Below, in pieces: positions 5,913 to 38,982 of a DNA stretch of 38,982 nucleotides; within the stretch, counting starts at the first letter, position 1; each line of letters begins with the position of its first letter. The DNA lies in NCBI GenBank assembly GCA_964373775.1, contig CAYJWA010000002.1, forward strand, positions 1 through 38,982. The letters run 5' to 3'. The position numbers and the translations under genes are program-made. The DNA comes from an uncultured Candidatus Saccharibacteria bacterium (GTDB lineage: Bacteria; Patescibacteriota; Minisyncoccia; Phycocordibacterales; UBA10002). Under the pieces are notes generated by a model. It searched no databases, was not told the DNA's origin, and worked only from the letters and a program-made list of their open reading frames with translations.

Positions 5913-5933
5913 ATCCACGGAACAGCACTGCTG

Positions 5934-5952
5934 TACAAGGTCCGACCTTGTA
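5934..5952. repeat. 19-bp palindrome family member (TACAAGGTCCGACCTTGTA)
   Basis: Perfect 9-bp arms, between convergent genes. Confidence 0.9.
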
Positions 5953-5988: not shown

Positions 5989-6009
5989 CTACAAGGTCCG
6001 ACCTCGTAG
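5989..6009. repeat. Palindrome family member (CTACAAGGTCCGACCTCGTAG)
   Basis: 10-bp arms with one mismatch, 37 nt after the previous copy. Confidence 0.85.
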
Positions 6010-9379: not shown

Positions 9380-11677
9380 ATGCAAAAATTCCAGCTGAAA
9401 AGCAAGTTCAGACCCGCTGGTGACCAACCAAAAGCTATTAAGGCATTGGTGGAAGGATTCAAGCGCGGCGAGCGGTATCAAACGCTACTTGGCGTTACCG
9501 GAAGCGGGAAAACCTTCACAGCGGCCAATGTGATTGCGCAGATTCAAAGGCCAACACTGGTGATTGCGCACAATAAAACGCTCGCGGCACAACTTGCGCA
9601 GGAGTACAAAGAGTTTTTTCCGGATAACGCGGTGCATTATTTTGTTTCCTACTACGATTACTACCAGCCGGAGGCGTATCTGCCTATAACCGACACCTAT
9701 ATTGAGAAAGAAGCGCAGATCAACGAGGAGATTGACCGCCTTCGGCACGCGACGACACAGGCGCTTCTCTCGCGCCGAGATGTGATTGTAGTTGCGAGCG
9801 TCTCGTGTATGTATGGGTTGGGAAGTCCCGAGGAATATGAAAAAGTGAATATAAAATTGCAAAAAGGACAGCGCGTCTCTCGCGGCGATGTTTTGCGCGC
9901 GCTCATCGGCATACATTATATACGTACGAACGCAGACCTATCCCCCGGCGAGTGCCGCGCGCTCGGCAATGTGGTGGAGGTAATGCCTCAAAGTGAGCGG
10001 GAGATGTATCGTATTGAGATTAGTGACGAGCTCGTTCAGCGGATTCAAAAGATTGACCCGATTACGCGGAAACTTTTGGAAGAAATAGATGCGTTGTTTA
10101 TTTTTCCGGCAAAACATTTCATCACGCCGGAGGAGGACCGCGCGCGAGCGATTGAGACAATCAAGAGTGAGCTGAAAAACCAGTTGAAGAAATTTGAAAA
10201 AGAGGGGAAATTGCTTGAAGCCGAGCGGCTTAAACGTCGCACCAACTATGACCTCGCGATGATACGCGAAGTCGGCTATTGCAACGGGATTGAAAATTAC
10301 TCACGCCACTTTTCGGGGAAACTCCCCGGCGAACCGCCCGATACCTTGCTTTCATATTTTTCCGCATCTCCAAGGTTCGACCTTAAATCGGGAGAAAGGT
10401 CGAACCTTGGAGATAGTGCAGATTTTTTGACCATCATCGACGAATCTCATGTGACAATTCCACAGCTTCGCGGAATGTATGCGGGGGACAAATCGCGGAA
10501 AGATACGCTTGTCGAACACGGCTTCCGTCTTCCCTCGGCGCGTGACAATCGTCCGTTACAGTTCCACGAGTTTGAGGAGCGGGTAGGGCAAGTGATTTTT
10601 ACCTCGGCGACGCCCGGGCCGTATGAGTTCGAGAAGAGCGGCACAGCAGTTGTCGAGCAGGTCATTAGACCGACTGGATTGGTTGACCCGCAGGTTGAAA
10701 TACGACCGGTAAGCGAGAACTTTTATTCCTCCTTTCCTAAAGGAGGCGCCCCGAATCTTCGAGGGACGGAGGATTTTAAAATCCCTCCTCCGATGTCACA
10801 TCGGAGTGCTCCCTTTAAGAAAGGGAGAAGAGATCGGCAGGGCTACTGCGGACAGATTCAGGACTTTAAAAAATCTACAAGGTCGGACCTTGTAAAAAAA
10901 GAGGGTTATAAAACAGGTTCTTTCACCCGTCTACAAGGTCGGACCTTGTATGGAGGGCAGGTTAAGGATTTCATCGCGGAGGCAGAAAAAGATATCAAAG
11001 CCGGTGGGCGGGTCATTGCGACGACGCTTACGAAGAAAATGGCCGAGGACCTCGCGGCGTTTCTCAAGGAAAAGGGTATCAAAACCGAGTACCTGCACAG
11101 CGACATTTTGACACTGGAGCGGATTATGATTCTGACGCGGTTTCGCAAGGGTGAGTTTGATTGTCTGGTGGGGGTTAATCTTTTGCGCGAAGGGCTGGAC
11201 CTTCCCGAGGTTTCGCTTATCGGCATTTTGGACGCTGACCGCGAGGGGTTTTTGCGTTCGCAGACATCACTCATTCAGATTATTGGTCGCGCGGCGCGCA
11301 ATGTCGCGGGGCGGGTGATTTTGTATGCGGATGTTATTACCGGTTCAATAGAAAAAGCGATTGGCGAGACGAATCGGCGCCGCGCGCTTCAGCTCGCGCA
11401 TAACAAAAAACACGGCATCACGCCGAAAACAATTATCAAAAAAGTGCGTGATATCATCGAAGCCTTCTGCTTGGAGCACGAAAAGGCCGTCAGTCACCTT
11501 ATGGAGATAGACAAAGAAGCGCTGAAAAATAAGACACTCAACCAGTTGCTCAAAGAAAAGAAAGTCCAAATGAACGCGGCAGTCAAAATTCTTGATTTCG
11601 AGACGGCCGCATTGCTCCGCGACGAAATCCGCGAGTTGGAGAAGCTGACACTGCATCCACTTATAATGTATCGCTGA
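9380..11677 (+). CDS. uvrB: Excinuclease ABC subunit B, carrying two in-frame repeat insertions
   Basis: MQKFQLKSKFRPAGDQPKAI...GVTGSGKTF, DESHVT, TLTKKMAEDL, GRAARN and the C-terminal UVR domain. ATG at 9380 fits orthologue N-termini. Confidence 0.95.
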   Translation: MQKFQLKSKFRPAGDQPKAIKALVEGFKRGERYQTLLGVTGSGKTFTAANVIAQIQRPTLVIAHNKTLAAQLAQEYKEFFPDNAVHYFVSYYDYYQPEAYLPITDTYIEKEAQINEEIDRLRHATTQALLSRRDVIVVASVSCMYGLGSPEEYEKVNIKLQKGQRVSRGDVLRALIGIHYIRTNADLSPGECRALGNVVEVMPQSEREMYRIEISDELVQRIQKIDPITRKLLEEIDALFIFPAKHFITPEEDRARAIETIKSELKNQLKKFEKEGKLLEAERLKRRTNYDLAMIREVGYCNGIENYSRHFSGKLPGEPPDTLLSYFSASPRFDLKSGERSNLGDSADFLTIIDESHVTIPQLRGMYAGDKSRKDTLVEHGFRLPSARDNRPLQFHEFEERVGQVIFTSATPGPYEFEKSGTAVVEQVIRPTGLVDPQVEIRPVSENFYSSFPKGGAPNLRGTEDFKIPPPMSHRSAPFKKGRRDRQGYCGQIQDFKKSTRSDLVKKEGYKTGSFTRLQGRTLYGGQVKDFIAEAEKDIKAGGRVIATTLTKKMAEDLAAFLKEKGIKTEYLHSDILTLERIMILTRFRKGEFDCLVGVNLLREGLDLPEVSLIGILDADREGFLRSQTSLIQIIGRAARNVAGRVILYADVITGSIEKAIGETNRRRALQLAHNKKHGITPKTIIKKVRDIIEAFCLEHEKAVSHLMEIDKEALKNKTLNQLLKEKKVQMNAAVKILDFETAALLRDEIRELEKLTLHPLIMYR
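10367..10413. repeat. Perfect 17-bp-stem hairpin element inside uvrB
   Basis: tctccaaggttcgacct (10367-10383), 13-nt loop, aggtcgaaccttggaga (10397-10413). Confidence 0.9.
10712..10954. repeat. 243-nt composite of stacked palindromes inserted in frame in uvrB
   Basis: Hairpins at 10728-10746, 10768-10788, 10790-10804 and 10809-10827, plus 19-bp palindromes at 10876-10894 and 10932-10950. Confidence 0.85.
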
Positions 11678-14088: not shown

Positions 14089-14212
14089 TAGATTAATGTT
14101 GTAAGATTAAGCATAACACAGATTAAAGTTGTAAGATTTAAGTACGACAGTAGAACTCAAAGCCGGATTTCCCTACTTTAATCTTTAATCTTTAATCTGA
14201 AATCTTAAATCT
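14089..14212. repeat. Low-complexity palindromic spacer: 2x ~30-nt AGATTAAWGTTGTAAGATT units facing 4x CTTTAATCT-type units
   Basis: Direct reading. The right-hand units are the reverse complement of AGATTAAAG. Confidence 0.8.
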
Positions 14213-15227: not shown

Positions 15228-17882
15228 ATGCAGCATCAAGGCGATAAAATCATTGTTAAGGGAGCACGGACACATAACCTTAAGAACATCACGGTTGAGA
15301 TGCCGCGCAATAAACTGATTGTATTCACCGGGCTTTCCGGAAGCGGGAAGTCGTCTTTGGCGTTTGATACGATCTTTGCGGAAGGTCAGCGCCGCTATGT
15401 GGAGTCGCTCTCTGCCTACGCGCGGCAGTTCCTGCGGCAGATGCAGAAGCCGGATGTGGACGAGATTATCGGACTCTCGCCGGCCATTTCCATTGACCAA
15501 AAGAGCCGTTCCAACAACCCGCGTTCAACGGTTGCGACCATTACCGAAATTTACGATTATCTGCGCGTCTTGTTTGCGCGCGTCGGGAAACCGCACTGTC
15601 TTCTCTGCGGGCGAGAAATCAAAAAGCTCTCCAACGAAGAAATTAAAGACACCATTTTGGAAGCGGTTGCGCGCGTGCGGAAAAGCGCTGCCGGGCCGAG
15701 GGTTCTTGGCGTCGCCGTGAGCAACGCGAAGCTCAAACTCTACGCGCCCATCGTCGTCGGGCGCAAGGGCGAGTACTACCAGTTGCTCTACGACTTGCTA
15801 GGAAAGGGGTACGCAGCGGTGAAGGTGGACGGTGTTGAGAAAAAACTGCGCGAGCCGATTGTCTTGGAGAAAAACAAGAAGCACGACATTGATGTGTTGG
15901 TAGACGAATTCTTTCTGTCGGAGCTCGCTAGGGGGAGCGACGCGACGAGGGAGCGTCTGCCGGAGGCAATTGAGCGCGCGCTCCACGAATCGGGCGGGCT
16001 CGTGCGCGTAGAAACATCTGCCGAGAGCAAGATTATTTCCGCCAAGTTTATGTGCCCCTACGACGGCTTTTCGTACCCAGAGGTGGAGCCGCGGCTCTTC
16101 TCTTTCAACTCGCCGTACGGCGCGTGTCCGGAATGCAACGGCCTCGGCACGCGGCATTTCTTCGGAGACGAGCCATGCCCGAAATGCAAAGGCGCGCGGC
16201 TGCGCGATGAATCTCTCCATGTCGTGCTCGGAAGCACGACCGCGGACAAGCGCGGACTGGACGCAGACCTACGCGGAAGGGGAAGCGGCGTAAACATTGT
16301 GCAGTTATCGGCCATGTCCATTGCGGATGCATACGACTTTTTCGTGGAGCTGAAGCTCTCGCCGAAGGAGCGGGAAATTGCCAAAGTCGTGCTCCGCGAG
16401 ATTGAGTCGCGACTGCAGTTTATGATTGATGTGGGTATTGAGTACCTCACACTTGACCGGCGGGCGCATACGCTCTCGGGCGGCGAGGCGCAGAGGATTC
16501 GGCTTGCCTCCCAACTGGGGAGCGGGCTCGTGGGCGCCCTGTATGTGCTTGACGAGCCGACCATCGGACTCCACGCGCGAGATAACGCGCGACTCTTGAA
16601 GACCCTTCTGCACCTGCGGGATATCGGGAACACGATTATTGTAGTGGAACATGATGAGGAAACGATTCTTTCCGCGGATTATTTGGTGGATATCGGTCCC
16701 GGAGCCGGCGTGCATGGCGGATACATTGTCGTTGACGGCGATTTGCAAAAGCTGTTGTCGGCAAAGACGAATGCAAGCAAGTCGCTGACACTTTCGTATC
16801 TGCGCGGCGAGGTGGAGATTGAAGTTCCGGAAACGCGCCGCACGCGAGACAAAGGCGCGCTCAAAATCCGCGGCGCAAAGATCTTCAACATACAAAATGT
16901 TTCGGTGGATGTGCCGCTTGGAAAACTGACGGTGATTACCGGCGTATCCGGTTCCGGCAAGTCCTCGTTTCTGTATGAGATTCTGCACAAAAATCTTCAG
17001 GCGCGGTTTGACCGCAGGTACCGAAGCGCTGAAACCTTTCACTGCAGCTCATTTACCGGTACTGAATACCTTTCACGCGCCATTCTCATAGACCAGTCCC
17101 CGATTGGGCGCACGCCACGCTCCAATCCTGCGACCTACACCGGAGCGTGGACATTCATTCGTGGGCTTTTTGCCGAAACTGAGGAGGCGCGCGTGCGCGG
17201 CTGGAGTCCGAGCCGCTTTTCGTTCAATGTGCCCACCGCAGGCGGGTCCGCCTCGGGCGGAAAAGGGGGTAGATGCGAAGCGTGCCAAGGGAACGGCGAG
17301 ATAGCCGTGGAGATGCACTTTCTCCCGACCGTCTATGTCACCTGTGATGTCTGCAATGGCAAGCGATTTATGAAAGAAACGTTGGAGGTGAGGTATAAGA
17401 AAAAAAGCGCCTACGACATACTTCAGATGACGATTGAGGAGTGTCTTGAATTCTTTGAGGATATCCCCGCGGTAGCCGATCGTTTAAAAACTTTAAACGA
17501 TGTAGGCCTAGGGTATCTAGAGTTGGGCCAATCCGCGACGACCCTCTCCGGCGGGGAGGCCCAACGGGTGAAAATATCCTCGGAACTCTATCGTACGCAT
17601 GTCCAAAAGACCATCTATCTTCTGGACGAGCCGACCGTGGGTCTCCACTACGAAGATGTAAAAAAGCTCATTGAGATTCTTCAGAAACTGGTGGACCACG
17701 GAAATACGGTCGTGGTCATTGAGCACAACATGGATGTGATTAAAAGTTCGGACTATGTTATTGACTTCGGGCCGGATGGCGGCGACGGGGGAGGGCAGAT
17801 TATCGCGAAGGGAACGCCGGAAGAAGTTGCAAGCCATAAGAAATCGTACACGGGGGAGTATTTGCGAAAGGCGCTTGGGTAG
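15228..17882 (+). CDS. uvrA: Excinuclease ABC subunit A
   Basis: [34 protein letters not shown], two ABC modules and zinc-finger cysteines. Confidence 0.95.
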
Positions 17883-17960
17883 ATTTAGGATTTATGATTT
17901 AAGATGTAAGAAAAAAACCAGCCGTTCATACCGACACGACTGGCATGGTTCCCTGGACGG

Positions 17961-18385: not shown

Positions 18386-19858
18386 ATGAATAGTCAAGCG
18401 TTTCCCAAGAGGCGAAGGATTTCAAAATCCCTCCCCCCACCGGGTACTCCCTTTAGAAAAGGGAGAATACCCGATACCCCCGGGGTGTATTTCTTTCTTG
18501 GGCGACCGCGAAGCGGTTTAGCCCGAGGGTCTCTACACCCTAAACCCGCAAGGGCGGGTCGGGTTTTGTATATCGGGCGCGCCGCCTCGCTCCGCAATCG
18601 CGTGCGAAGCTATTTCGCACCTGACATCGCGGAGAAGCGAAGCTCGTGGATTGCGAAGATGCTTACCGAGGCGAAGAGTATTAATTTCCGGAAAACCGAT
18701 TCAGTGCTTGAGGCAATTCTCCTTGAGGCATACCTTATCAAAAAACTTCAGCCGCCATACAATACGGAACAGAAAGACGACAAGAGCTTCAACTGCATCG
18801 TCATCACCGACGAGTCGTTTCCCGCGCTTATGGTCGCGCGTCAAAAGAACATAGACTTTTCCTCGGTAAGGATTAAGCCTGCCCGCCGAAACCTCGGCGC
18901 AGGCGGGGATGAAGGATTAAAGATTCGCGCCGTGTACGGTCCTTTCCCGCACGGTGAGGAACTTCAGACCGCGCTTAAAATCATCCGTAAGATTTTTCCC
19001 TTTCGCGACGATACATGTACGCCGTGCCCCCAAAGTATCAGAGGACATTCCAACATTCTCAAGAATGTTGGAATGTTGTGTCGCCCGTGCTTTAACAGGC
19101 AGATAGGACTTTGCCCGGGGGTCTGCACCGGCGAGATACGCGAGCGGGAGTACGCAAAAACAATTCGGAATATCCGGCTCTTTTTTGAGGGGAAAAAACC
19201 GCGACTGCTGAAACTGCTCAAATCAGAAATGAATGCCGCGGCAAAAGCGCAGGAATTTGAAAAAGCTAGCGTAGTTAAAAAAACCATCTTTGCTCTCCAG
19301 CACATCCAAGAGGTCGCCCTCCTCAAAACTTTTAACTTTACACTTTCAACTTTTAACTTCAGGATTGAGGCCTACGACCTCTCGCATTTCGGCGGAAAAG
19401 AAATAGTCGGCGCAATGGCGGTAGTTCTAAACGGCGTCGCGCAAAAAAGCGAGTATCGCCTGTTCAAACTGCGCGGCATCAGGTCGCAAAATGAAGTTGC
19501 CGGTTTGCAGGAAATTATCCGCCGCCGCTTGAATCATCCGGAATGGCTGTTTCCAGATTTGATTGTCGTTGACGGAAACGAGGTCCAGAAAAATGCGGCT
19601 GAAAAGATTCTGAAAGAATGGGGAAGAGTGATTCCGGTTGCCGCGGTCGTGAAAGACGAGCGCCATCGCCCGCGGGAAATTCTTAACAAGATGCTTGCTG
19701 TCGGGCAACCCTCCTACATTCCGAGGAATGTAGGAATATGGAGCGAACAGCAAGAATTACATGCGGCGATTCTTCTGGCGAACAGCGAGGCGCACCGATT
19801 CGTTCTGAAGTTCCAGCGCAGGCAGCGGCTGGTTAAACGAACCGCTGTGAAAAACTGA
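18386..19858 (+). CDS. uvrC: Excinuclease ABC subunit C. Short form with no C-terminal (HhH)2 domain and several in-frame hairpin insertions.
   Basis: GIY-YIG (PGVYFF...VLYIGRA...RNRVRSYF), UVR domain (EFEKASVVKKTIFALQ), endonuclease domain (IEAYDLSHFGG). Ends ~15 aa after SEAHRF. Confidence 0.9.
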   Translation: MNSQAFPKRRRISKSLPPPGTPFRKGRIPDTPGVYFFLGRPRSGLARGSLHPKPARAGRVLYIGRAASLRNRVRSYFAPDIAEKRSSWIAKMLTEAKSINFRKTDSVLEAILLEAYLIKKLQPPYNTEQKDDKSFNCIVITDESFPALMVARQKNIDFSSVRIKPARRNLGAGGDEGLKIRAVYGPFPHGEELQTALKIIRKIFPFRDDTCTPCPQSIRGHSNILKNVGMLCRPCFNRQIGLCPGVCTGEIREREYAKTIRNIRLFFEGKKPRLLKLLKSEMNAAAKAQEFEKASVVKKTIFALQHIQEVALLKTFNFTLSTFNFRIEAYDLSHFGGKEIVGAMAVVLNGVAQKSEYRLFKLRGIRSQNEVAGLQEIIRRRLNHPEWLFPDLIVVDGNEVQKNAAEKILKEWGRVIPVAAVVKDERHRPREILNKMLAVGQPSYIPRNVGIWSEQQELHAAILLANSEAHRFVLKFQRRQRLVKRTAVKN

Positions 19859-20076: not shown

Positions 20077-20266
20077 AAAGCACGAAACACTTTCTTAAAA
20101 CACAAAGCACAGTATCCAAAGAACCAAACAGACTTCACAAAACACAATACATCCACCATTCGGGGGATCTCCCGAAGTGAGACAAAAATCCAAACGAAAA
20201 GGCAAGTTTGTGTTTTGAGTAGTTTGAAGTTTTGTTTGGAAACCGTGCGGTCTGTGTTTTGGAAAG
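20077..20266 (+). repeat. Long structured palindromic element, copy 2 (upstream of rpoB)
   Basis: Core acaaaacacaatacatccaccattcgggggatctcccgaagtgagacaaaaa. The 3' end gtgcggtctgtgttttggaaag is shared with copy 3. Confidence 0.85.
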
Positions 20267-20303
20267 TTGATATGAATATTATTGGTAACGCAGCTCACCC
20301 TAT

Positions 20304-23569: not shown

Positions 23570-23726
23570 GCACAAGCACGAAACAATCTTCTTACAACAC
23601 AAAACACAGTGTCTCCACCCTTCGGGGGATCTCCCGAAGGGAGACAAAAACCCAACGGGGAAATGAGTTTGTGTTTTGAAAAGATTGTGTTTTGTCTGGA
23701 CTTTGTGCGGTCTGTGTTTTGGAAAG
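23570..23726 (+). repeat. Long structured palindromic element, copy 3 (rpoB-rpoC intercistronic)
   Basis: Core acaaaacacagtgtctccacccttcgggggatctcccgaagggagacaaaaa. Starts 3 nt after the rpoB stop. Confidence 0.85.
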
Positions 23727-23770
23727 GGTAAGAAGTTCTTGTTTCGGCTTTGCCAAGTAATCCTTATTGT

Positions 23771-27861: not shown

Positions 27862-28875
27862 ATGAGTTTTTTCACCCCCAAACTCGGAATTGACCTCGGC
27901 ACCGCCAACACCTTGGTGTATGTTCCGGGCAAGGGCATTGTGCTCAATGAGCCGTCCGTGGTGGCGGTCTCCGAGCAGGACAATCGGATTCTTGCGGTCG
28001 GGGATGAGGCGAAGAAGATGGTGGGGAAGACACCGGAAGAGATCGTGGCGTACCGGCCCATGAAAGACGGAGTGATTGCGGACTACCGCGTGACCGAGGC
28101 AATGCTCCGGTACTTTATTACGAAAGCCCTCGGCAGATGGAACATCTGGAAGCCGGAAGTGCTCGTTTCTGTGCCCGCAGGCGTTACTTCAACAGAGCGG
28201 CGCGCCGTGATTGAAGCCGCCATCAAAGCCGGCGCGAAGAACGCGTATGTGGTGAAGGAGCCGATTCTTGCGGCAATCGGCGCGGGCATCCCGATTCACG
28301 AGCCCGTGGGGCACATGATTGTGGACATTGGCGGCGGCACCACCGATGTTGCGGTCATATCGCTCGGCGGCATCGTCTCTTCCACTTCAGTCAAGTGCGC
28401 CGGAAACCGCGTTGATTCCGCAATTGCGGATTACATCAAAAAGACCTTTAACCTCGCGATTGGCGACAAGATGGCGGAAGATGTGAAGATAGAGATCGGC
28501 TCTGCTGTTCCGTTGGAGGAGGAACTCTCCCTCCTGATTAAGGGACGCGACTTCATTACCGGGCTTCCGCGCACCGCAGAGGTGAAGACAAATGAAGTCG
28601 TGAAGGCAATCGGCAGGGAACTGCGGGAGATGATTAAATCAATCAAGGATGTTCTGCAGGAGACGCCGCCGGAGCTCTCTGCGGATATTATTGACCGAGG
28701 GATTATTATGACCGGCGGCTCGTCCCAGTTGCGCAACTTTCCGGAGTTGGTCTTCCGGCGGACCGGCGTGAAAGCAGTGCTCGCGAAAGACGCGCTCTTC
28801 TGCGTGGCAAAGGGCACCGGCATCGCGCTCGCGCACCTGGATACCTACAAGAAGTCAGTCATTGCGAAGAGGTAG
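27862..28875 (+). CDS. mreB: Rod shape-determining actin homologue MreB
   Basis: GIDLGTANTLVY, DIGGGTTDVAV and MTGGSSQLRN. Confidence 0.95.
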   Translation: MSFFTPKLGIDLGTANTLVYVPGKGIVLNEPSVVAVSEQDNRILAVGDEAKKMVGKTPEEIVAYRPMKDGVIADYRVTEAMLRYFITKALGRWNIWKPEVLVSVPAGVTSTERRAVIEAAIKAGAKNAYVVKEPILAAIGAGIPIHEPVGHMIVDIGGGTTDVAVISLGGIVSSTSVKCAGNRVDSAIADYIKKTFNLAIGDKMAEDVKIEIGSAVPLEEELSLLIKGRDFITGLPRTAEVKTNEVVKAIGRELREMIKSIKDVLQETPPELSADIIDRGIIMTGGSSQLRNFPELVFRRTGVKAVLAKDALFCVAKGTGIALAHLDTYKKSVIAKR

Positions 28876-28880
28876 GAGAT

Positions 28881-28985
28881 GCAGAACAGGGAACAGGGAA
28901 CAGGGAACAGGGAACATGAAATATGGAATATGAAATATGAAATAGGGAACAGGGAACATGAAATATGGAACATGAAATATGAAAT
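28881..28985. repeat. Heptamer microsatellite array (15 units of AGGGAAC / ATGAAAT / ATGGAAY), including a 2x 42-nt tandem duplication
   Basis: Direct reading. The 42-nt units lie at 28902-28943 and 28944-28985. Confidence 0.9.
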
Positions 28986-36828: not shown

Positions 36829-37575
36829 ATGACTTTCCACATCATCACTCTCTTCCCCCGCGCCTTTGACTCTTACCTCGGAGAGTCCATCTTACAGCGC
36901 GCCATTCTGGACAAGAAAATCAAGGTGAAGTTTTACAACCCGCGCGACTTCGCCGAAGACAAACACAGACGCATAGATCGCGCGCCGTACGGAGGCGGGC
37001 CCGGGATGGTGATTCAAGCGGAACCGGTACTCAAAGCAGTAGAAACTGCTTTGAGAGATTTAAGATTTAAGATTTATGATTTAAGAAAGAAGAAGCTAAA
37101 CACTAAACGCTCTACGCTAAACGTTTTTCCCAAAATCATCTGGCTATCGCCAAGCGGAAAGCAATTTACGAATGAGACCGGTATAAAATTCGCGCAATGC
37201 AGCGACCTTATCATCATCTGCGGGCGGTACGAGGGGATAGACGCGCGCGTGAAAAAAGTTCTACAAGACACGGCACGAATCCGCCGCGGCGGACGAATAA
37301 AATTGGAAGAGATATCAGTTGGACCGTTTGTGCTGACCGGCGGGGAACTGCCCGCAATGCTTCTGATTGATGTAATATCTCGACAGGTAGAAGGAGTGCT
37401 CGGCGACCCTCGCTCGCGCGAGGAGTCGCGAGTCGCAAGTCCGGAAGTGTACACCCGCCCGGAGGTTTTTCTGTATCGCGGAAAGAAATATCGCGTCCCC
37501 AAAATCCTCCTCTCCGGCCACCACCGGAAAATCGACGAGTGGCGACAAAGAAAAAGGAATTTTACGAGCATCTGA
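36829..37575 (+). CDS. trmD: tRNA (guanine37-N1)-methyltransferase, with two in-frame repeat insertions
   Basis: ITLFPRAF, DRAPYGGGPGMV, CGRYEGIDARV, LTGGELPAM and RPEV...VPKILLSGHH. Confidence 0.95.
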   Translation: MTFHIITLFPRAFDSYLGESILQRAILDKKIKVKFYNPRDFAEDKHRRIDRAPYGGGPGMVIQAEPVLKAVETALRDLRFKIYDLRKKKLNTKRSTLNVFPKIIWLSPSGKQFTNETGIKFAQCSDLIIICGRYEGIDARVKKVLQDTARIRRGGRIKLEEISVGPFVLTGGELPAMLLIDVISRQVEGVLGDPRSREESRVASPEVYTRPEVFLYRGKKYRVPKILLSGHHRKIDEWRQRKRNFTSI

Positions 37576-38822: not shown

Positions 38823-38895
38823 TGGCGACAGAAATCTTTGCTGTGTGCGGATGGACGGGCCCGTTCGTTCATAGCAGATACGTTTAACGAATAGA

Positions 38896-38982
38896 GGTAG
38901 ATACACTTGACGAATGGTGCACACGAATACCAAAAGCGGTAGATACACTTGACGAATGGTGCACGCGAATTTTAGGAAGGCG
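38896..38982. repeat. 42-bp-period tandem repeat at the window end (about 2 units), continuous with nt 1-55
   Basis: ggtagatacacttgacgaatggtgcacacgaa at 38896-38927, then taccaaaagc + the same core at 38928-38969. Confidence 0.9.

Follow-up and report, generated by a model that had tools for sequence, protein, structure and literature searches.

A modular hairpin repeat of Paceibacterota within uvrB and uvrC, probably translated

Hairpin elements in the uvrB and uvrC genes

The DNA stretch analysed (“the window”, 38,982 nucleotides (nt) of contig CAYJWA010000002.1) comes from the chromosome of an uncultured groundwater bacterium belonging to the Candidate Phyla Radiation (CPR). It holds genes for UvrB (9380-11677), a FIST protein, a histidine kinase, UvrA, UvrC (18386-19858), RpoB, RpoC, MreB and a surface protein of 2493 residues, and both uvrB and uvrC carry, within their reading frames, copies of the hairpin repeat described here (all features on the + strand). 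The uvrB gene encodes 765 residues, counted from the ATG that aligns with solved UvrB (Pfam UvrB_inter, UvrB, Helicase_C and UVR; PDB 2fdc, E = 1e-227, in two blocks split by an insert). The uvrC gene encodes a short form of 490 residues (Pfam GIY-YIG, UVR and UvrC_RNaseH_dom), with orthologues in two relatives, L059 and L001. The closest UvrB and UvrC relatives, from metagenome-assembled genomes of Candidatus Paceibacterota, Candidatus Taylorbacteria and Parcubacteria, assign the host by sequence to Paceibacterota; identity to the nearest relatives was at most 74% for UvrB, and for UvrC 61% (L059) and 56% (L001).

Two words were matched exactly at only two places each in the window: CTCCCTTTnnnAAAGGGAG at 10809-10827 and 18447-18465 (0.20 matches expected by chance; none of 100 shuffles reached three), and GGATTTnAAAATCCCTCC at 10771-10788 and 18417-18434 (0.13 expected). 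Together they mark a pair of hairpins within 10768-10827 (uvrB) and 18417-18465 (uvrC), both inside long open reading frames (ORFs) identified by Pfam. A profile hidden Markov model (HMM) built from 26 copies also detected exactly two copies in the window. The exact double matches, the shuffles and the HMM thus bear out the original prediction, made from this DNA alone, that the same hairpin element lies in both genes. That prediction had described the element as two hairpins; both exist, but the real unit is larger, with five consecutive hairpins in uvrB (10728-10827).

The uvrB copy is a full one of about 107 nt (10723-10829; nhmmer E = 2.6e-24, model positions 2-102) with perfect stems: H1 at 10728-10746, H2 at 10747-10767, H3 at 10768-10788, H4 at 10788-10806 and H5 at 10809-10827. 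In RNA folding it gave five hairpins enclosed by a short stem (-48.8 kcal/mol, z = -3.66 with respect to shuffles). The copy lies in a composite in-frame insertion of 243 nt (81 codons; 10712-10954) between VEIRPV and GQVKDF, at the junction of the two helicase halves. The corresponding residues, 445-525, have no counterpart in Bacillus caldotenax UvrB (2fdc), where they would fall between residues 427 and 429, and of the 60 nearest UvrB proteins the majority show RPVNAKGKYGGQIQDF at this position; many hold different inserts, which marks it as an insertion hotspot. Besides the sense copy of the window, the same site holds a full antisense copy in L058 (protein P0014, E = 2.7e-22) and a diverged antisense copy in L059 (E = 4.5e-7), and it is empty in L061. 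H2 and H4 of the window and L058 copies are unrelated, which argues for separate arrivals and excludes the window copy being an inverted ancestral antisense copy. An AAAGGRRG arm abuts native uvrB sequence in both the sense and the antisense insertions. The uninterrupted target at the empty site (L061, 4321-4335) reads GCAAAAGGGAAGTAT and includes AAAGGGAAG, almost the same as the 3' arm of H5 and H1 (7-8 nt identical to that of H5); the uvrC target resembles a hairpin arm more weakly than the uvrB target.

Other repeats have accumulated in the same gene. Two copies of a second palindrome family, TACAAGGTCGGACCTTGTA, lie inside the composite insertion (10876-10894 and 10932-10950; repeat families D5, I22 and I23) and are read STRSDLV and LQGRTLY; these peptides are found at the same UvrB site in several relatives, and the DNA in L062. 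This family, of the form TACAAGGTC(G/C)GACCTTGTA, also has intergenic copies at 628-648, 5933-5952 and 5990-6008 besides the two in uvrB. The native UvrB motif Y-x-G-Q-(I/V)-(Q/K)-D-F occurs twice, at 10845-10868 and 10951-10974, flanking the TACAAGG pair; the duplication may have come from unequal recombination between an allele with the five hairpins and one with the TACAAGG pair, of which L062 has only the latter. A separate palindromic in-frame insertion of 54 nt (10364-10417; inverted repeat I24) has 19-nt arms at 10366-10384 and 10396-10414 (ATCTCCAAGGTTCGACCTT ... AAGGTCGAACCTTGGAGAT, 100% complementary) and corresponds to an 18-residue gap with respect to 2fdc just before the DESH helicase motif, where the relatives are also variable.

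The uvrC copy is partial (18413-18465) and comprises H3 (18417-18434), H4 (18435-18444) and H5 (18447-18465). It was detected by nhmmer with E = 9.5e-15 over 18406-18468 (model positions 35-103, that is H3-H5 with a remnant of H2), folded into two strong hairpins (z = -3.49 with respect to shuffles), and is the 3' part of a unit of a different subfamily than the uvrB copy. Filled and empty sites can be compared directly. The window UvrC begins MNSQAFPKR-RRISKSLPPPGTPFRKG-RIPDTPGVYFF, the syntenic relative L059/L060 begins MNRQAFLKK-RLPDTPGVYFF, and L001 begins MLSQAALK-RFPDTPGVYFF; in the DNA alignment the window gene shows a clean extra in-frame block of 51 nt with respect to L059 and 54 nt with respect to L001, absent from both relatives in DNA and protein. 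The insert (17-18 codons) follows approximately codon 9, about six residues before the first GIY-YIG strand. Since the N-terminus (MNSQAF.K) is conserved in both orthologues, the stretch is an internal insertion and not the N-terminal extension that had been proposed.

A second in-frame insertion in uvrC (18502-18549, 48 nt), unrelated and with small hairpins, adds 16 residues to the GIY-YIG beta-hairpin, between its GVYFF and YIGRA strands (DNA and protein alignment with L001 and L059). Two further in-frame palindromes of this gene (19045-19076 and 19712-19735) have ACATTCC/GGAATGT arms in common, with the translations NILKNVGM and YIPRNVGIW. The uvrC genes of more distant relatives (L004, L007, L009) hold other repeated peptide inserts (e.g. 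SLQPLPSFQREGRLSSKIFAQSGDQAKFSAAVSD) at two positions in the same UvrC, and it is suggested that unrelated repeat families act likewise in other CPR lineages.

The repeat family, its hosts and its reading frames

Public metagenome contigs were scanned once with the pattern GGATTTNAAAATCCCTCC-N(2-32)-CTCCCTT (24 specified bases; by a rough estimate, less than one chance match expected), and 41 further loci were obtained from approximately 18 groundwater and sediment data sets. All 41 also shared conserved parts outside what the pattern requires. In L001 (Parcubacteria GW2011_GWA2_49_9), the uvrC gene carries an insert at another position that aligns with the window uvrB over approximately 110 nt, well beyond the two hairpins. 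Several insert-bearing loci were assembled from separate samples (L027/L037, L029/L032, L039/L042/L056 and L023/L055), which argues against an assembly artefact. Such an artefact, or a chance resemblance between CT/AG-rich low-complexity stretches, would be in keeping with the presence of only two copies in the window and with arms that are purine- or pyrimidine-rich, but it is vanishingly unlikely in view of the exact double matches (0.13-0.20 expected), the 41 independent loci, their recovery from different samples and the homology beyond the search pattern. The original prediction had itself named chance CT/AG-rich similarity, with no further copies, as the alternative, and this is contradicted by the metagenome loci; its proposal that one element family entered both uvrB and uvrC is upheld by these loci, by the HMM E-values and by the relatives that lack the uvrC insert.

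An alignment of 39 non-redundant copies gave the plan of the family. The full unit, of about 105-110 nt, starts with a conserved yTTATT lead, continues with five hairpins and ends in a conserved AATTAAGA tail. H1 (CCTCCTTT-nnn-AAAGGAGG), H3 (GGAGGATTTT-AAAATCCCTCC) and H5 (CTCCCTTT-nnn-AAAGGGAG) are conserved in sequence, and H2 and H4 are variable in sequence but retained as hairpins. One subfamily (L020, L025, L049, L050, L057 and L034) has in addition an outer inverted repeat of about 17 nt (AGGACTTAYRCRTTTGG / CCAAAYRYGTAAGTCCT). The elements range from approximately 105 to 165 nt and have no coding capacity of their own. It could be supposed that no element pre-existed and that the hairpins were created on the spot in each gene through local inverted duplication (template-switch quasi-palindromes), given that the empty UvrB site already has AAAGGGAAG, that no target duplication was seen and that small hairpins are nested in the loops of others. 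This is very unlikely: the same H1, H3 and H5 sequences recur in the same order in approximately 40 unrelated contexts, including intergenic ones, and could not have arisen independently from local sequence.

Fragments (H3-H5 halves) and nested insertions were common, and on several other contigs nhmmer detected a second and a third copy, some of them half-units beginning within the H3 loop. A mini-hairpin (AGTCTACGACT / AGTCGTAGACT) lies inside the loops or arms of three copies, L018 (9419-9445), L038 and L047, and a larger hairpin (CCCGCCCGACTGAA...TTCAGTCGTTCGGGCGGG) lies between H1 and H2 in L022/L028, so that hairpins appear to nest within hairpins.

A scan of viral contigs gave no matches, and a word-indexed protein search with the 45-residue insert peptide gave no candidate; the only match of an exhaustive search of representatives, P0121, was rejected as an unrelated, translated CRISPR-like repeat array. 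With the covariance models of Rfam 15, the window yielded only two tRNAs at gathering score and nothing at the element, and five full intergenic copies had no match at E <= 1. No description of the family was found in Rfam or in the CPR, Parcubacteria and Patescibacteria literature searched, which for that literature is absence of evidence.

Ten of the 37 non-redundant metagenome copies, together with both window copies, were located within long ORFs, and the others were intergenic. Sense copies were found in UvrC at another site (L001/L018), UvrA (L001), MurD (L039, L040), a Zn-dehydrogenase (L023) and a PD-(D/E)XK nuclease (L019), and antisense copies in RpiB (L027), TruB (L035), Dus (L044) and a large surface protein (L048). 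In UvrB, UvrC, MurD, RpiB, TruB, Dus, ADH_zinc_N and PDDEXK_1, Pfam domains lie on either side of the insert or extend across it. Copies in nucleotide excision repair genes turned up because these were the loci fetched, and a special link to excision repair is not supported, given the other hosts (murD, rpiB, truB, dus, Zn-dehydrogenase, nuclease and surface protein genes). The orientation and position of intergenic copies with respect to neighbouring genes showed no pattern, every arrangement being represented. Copies are thus shown to have reached many genomic sites independently and in both orientations, most of them intergenic, and to have made repeated use of permissive loops.

The copies in genes are read in several frames. 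The original prediction had favoured a single tolerated frame, but H3 is read EDFKIPP in the window uvrB and RRISKSLP in the window uvrC, and across the coding copies all three sense frames and one antisense frame occur: EDFKIPP/EDLKIPP in the window uvrB, L018 and L039, the RRILKSL type in the window uvrC, GGF(K/Q)NPS in L019, L023 and L040, and antisense GGILKSS in L027, L035, L044, L048 and P0014. Only H5 shares its frame between the two window copies, since spacer and H4 lengths differ, and here the predicted common reading PF(R/K)KGR holds (APFKKGR in UvrB, TPFRKGR in UvrC). H5 is open in two of the three sense frames and mostly closed in the third by CTT-TAG/TAA. A count of stops in all six frames gave a mean of 1.8 open frames with respect to 1.7 in shuffles, so the element is not pre-adapted to openness.

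All 12 coding copies were in frame and free of stops in the frame of the host gene. With a mean of 1.8 open frames in six, this would be very unlikely unless the copies were translated (roughly 0.3^12, as an estimate). The three copies that use the TTT-TAA frame of H3 all have A or C at the hairpin centre, a position occupied by T in 21 of 27 intergenic copies. In two MurD orthologues the element sits at one and the same site with H3 in different frames, because H2 and H4 differ in length in ways that together preserve the frame of the gene, which argues for a constraint on total length and stops and not on a particular peptide. The predicted insert peptides of the window include RRISKSLPPPGTPFRKGR and EDFKIPPPMSHRSAPFKKGR, and those predicted to span the junctions include AFPKRRRISK, TPFRKGRIPDTPGVY and GTEDFKIPPPMSHR. 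Removal of the inserts from the mRNA, or their bypass by the ribosome in the manner of an intron or a hop, would leave them untranslated and would agree with the strong local secondary structure. Neither process needs the insert to be in frame and open, as every coding copy is, or to avoid the stop at the H3 centre; no intron-like match was found in Rfam, and a self-splicing intron would be far larger than 50-110 nt. We consider removal or bypass extremely unlikely.

Folding, function and spread of the repeat

H2 and H4 were examined by folding each copy and by arm-swap chimeras, in which the 5' half comes from one copy and the 3' half from a second. Both form hairpins in nearly every copy despite their differing sequences (24 different 5' arms of H4 among 29 unique sequences). 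The mean minimum free energies of real copies were -5.2 kcal/mol for H4 and -5.7 kcal/mol for H2, vs. -2.4 and -3.5 for chimeras and -1.9 and -3.5 for mononucleotide shuffles. H1 and H3 show paired variants, e.g. CCCCCTTT/AAAGGGGG. RNAalifold on a MAFFT alignment recovered only H1, H3 and H5, since the variable H2 and H4 were misaligned, and the alignment of mixed lengths was not structurally consistent. In a descriptive sense, the pattern of H2 and H4 is covariation. Such pairing can come from selection on the folded form or from self-correction of palindromes by template switching, and covariation alone is therefore no proof of function.

The element might thus be chiefly a functional structured RNA or single-stranded DNA motif under selection (an mRNA stabiliser or attenuator, a protein-binding site, or a series of hairpins sequestering GGAGG motifs like the Shine-Dalgarno (SD) sequence), with its spread being secondary, an explanation that is compatible with a dispersed, translated repeat. 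The five-hairpin architecture, the covarying H2 and H4, the outer stem of some copies and the maintenance of copies at orthologous sites across diverged MurD and UvrB genes would fit such a role. So would the 3' arm of H1, which together with the two bases after it reads AAAGGAGGTG in most copies (AAAGGAGGCG in the window uvrB, 10728-10746); AAAGGAGGTG is the perfect complement of the canonical 3' tail of 16S rRNA (CACCUCCUUU), which the 5' arm of H1, CCTCCTTT, mimics. H3 and H5 also carry GGAGG/GGGAG opposite CCTCC/CTCCC. Against a chiefly functional motif stand the failure to match Rfam even at E <= 1, the intergenic copies without consistent orientation or position to neighbouring genes, the presence of both orientations inside genes, the common fragments and nested insertions, and the fact that pairing is maintainable by template switching without function. 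On balance this explanation appears unlikely.

The uvrB and uvrC sites quite probably belong to a single dispersed, modular family of palindromic repeats from Paceibacterota (near Candidatus Taylorbacteria), translated where it lies in genes, and the family is probably selfish. Inside genes, the copies that survive would be those that add a multiple of three bases, are free of stops and fall in a permissive surface loop or linker, and these would be translated as extra peptides of 17-40 residues; survivorship under purifying selection could account for the frame, the absence of stops and the location. In uvrB, a full unit would have entered the junction of the helicase halves, a site with different inserts in many relatives, and in uvrC the H3-H5 part would have entered after codon 9, upstream of the GIY-YIG strand. 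As a best guess, the repeat may spread by mobilisation in trans or by copying, acting on folded single-stranded hairpins without target duplication, by a chemistry like that of IS200/IS605, of REP/RAYT or of template switching guided by microhomology. Two insertion events suggest that integration may be guided by microhomology or by folded single strands.

Several points weigh against this reading of a selfish, dispersed and translated repeat. No target-site duplication was seen in the filled/empty comparisons of uvrC or uvrB, and none was evident around the intergenic copies. No transposase or autonomous partner was found among the 60 loci searched, where the outer-repeat pattern occurred almost only beside elements; the window copies, like most coding copies, lack this outer inverted repeat, and there are only two copies in the window. 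The kept pairing of H2 and H4 could be due to functional selection, or be a by-product of template-switch correction, and not reflect selfish spread. We infer the translation of the inserts from the reading frames. The UvrB insert may be a disordered surface loop, for which support is weak because the whole AlphaFold2 model was poor (50 homologues; mean predicted local distance difference test (pLDDT) 62, predicted template modelling score (pTM) 0.39), both inserts having pLDDT below 50 and no secondary structure.

The repeat is more general than the original prediction held, since the comparisons between genomes point to a hairpin array widespread in Paceibacterota and residing, apparently translated, in essential genes. 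A wider proposal can be put forward tentatively, and with more doubt than confidence: that it represents an undescribed, self-propagating class of hairpin arrays in CPR bacteria which moves through folded single-stranded DNA or microhomology without target duplication, seeds peptide loops in essential proteins and so explains part of the lineage-specific insertions of CPR proteins, with its SD- and anti-SD-like arms possibly acting on translation.

The window contains other repeats. A conserved block of about 130 nt with a hairpin (CCCTTCGGG-ggatct-CCCGAAGGG) occurs at 1145-1277, 20136-20268 and 23598-23728 (families D3, D4 and D15), upstream of an ORF of 601 residues, rpoB and rpoC, for which it might serve as a common leader or regulatory motif. 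At 28871-28985, separating mreB from the giant surface protein gene, 7- and 14-nt units (GGGAACA / TGAAATA; family D1) are arrayed in tandem, and A/T-rich repeats of the AGATTTAAGATTT type lie between genes in both orientations at 957-996, 14090-14212, 17881-17920 and 37056-37100 (families D7, D8, I2, I4, I6 and I13). The first 55 nt of the window match the last 55 (54/55), and an extra 42-nt tandem copy precedes the end (38886-38982). The genes follow the order of L059/L060 in circularly permuted form (giant protein, TrmD, MFS, contig end/start, ATP-grasp, DUF456, LOG, TGT, uvrB). Possibly the contig closes on itself, or else its two ends fall within one repeat; a 39-kb circle with rpoBC and uvrABC would be odd.

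Significance and comparison with known repeat systems

In-frame palindromes in coding sequences have so far been treated as a peculiarity of Rickettsia. If the interpretation given here is true, an unrelated and structurally more elaborate family in Paceibacterota would point to a general route of protein evolution, in which selfish DNA makes new surface loops in essential enzymes, and would account concretely for some of the many insertions in CPR proteins that lack an explanation. Inserts of this kind make proteins longer, break up domain matches and can mislead gene calling and the alignments used for marker-gene phylogeny, and hotspots such as the inter-domain linker of UvrB mark permissive sites. 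Conserved and covarying hairpins without target duplication would also provide a route to study mobilisation in organisms with very few recognisable transposons.

Among known systems, the translational bypass elements (byps) of yeast mitochondria and the hop of T4 gene 60 likewise interrupt coding sequences with short inserts rich in hairpins. The ribosome skips these, and they need be neither in frame nor free of stops, whereas here every coding copy is in frame and open.

The small repeats of the MITE (miniature inverted-repeat transposable element), BOX, ERIC, Correia and MIRU type share with the present family their small size, non-coding nature, multiple copies and strong folding. BOX elements are modular as well, and MIRUs carry translation signals and can be read through. 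MITEs resemble it further in being non-autonomous and in size, and one subfamily of the present repeat ends in inverted repeats of roughly 17 nt, but no target duplication was found, no parent insertion sequence was found in the loci searched, and the window copies are without terminal repeats. In-frame residence in essential genes, present here, is unusual for families of the MITE type.

REP (repetitive extragenic palindromic) sequences, with BIME and REPIN, which are mobilised by RAYT in proteobacteria, are also short imperfect palindromes in mosaic clusters, with structure more conserved than sequence, no target duplication, and other repeats accumulating at the same spots. REPs are by definition extragenic, however, and approximately a quarter of the copies described here are intragenic.

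The closest likeness in kind is to the Rickettsia palindromic elements (RPE), dispersed repeats of approximately 150 bp that are inserted in frame in many unrelated genes and translated (PMC10969869, summarising Ogata et al. 2000, 2002). Both families are dispersed, of about 100-150 nt, with strong hairpin potential, and occur between genes and in unrelated housekeeping genes, where in-frame copies leave the host ORF intact and are read as an extra peptide. The differences concern the host, here a free-living or episymbiotic CPR lineage and not Rickettsia, with no relatedness in sequence expected; the architecture, here five short hairpins (three conserved, two variable) and in RPE one long palindrome; and the reading, here in several frames and both orientations with no single element peptide, and with frequent fragments and nested hairpins. 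In view of the different host phylum, the architecture, the use of both orientations and the lack of a single element peptide, the Paceibacterota repeat, though it behaves like an RPE, is filed as an analogue and not as a member.

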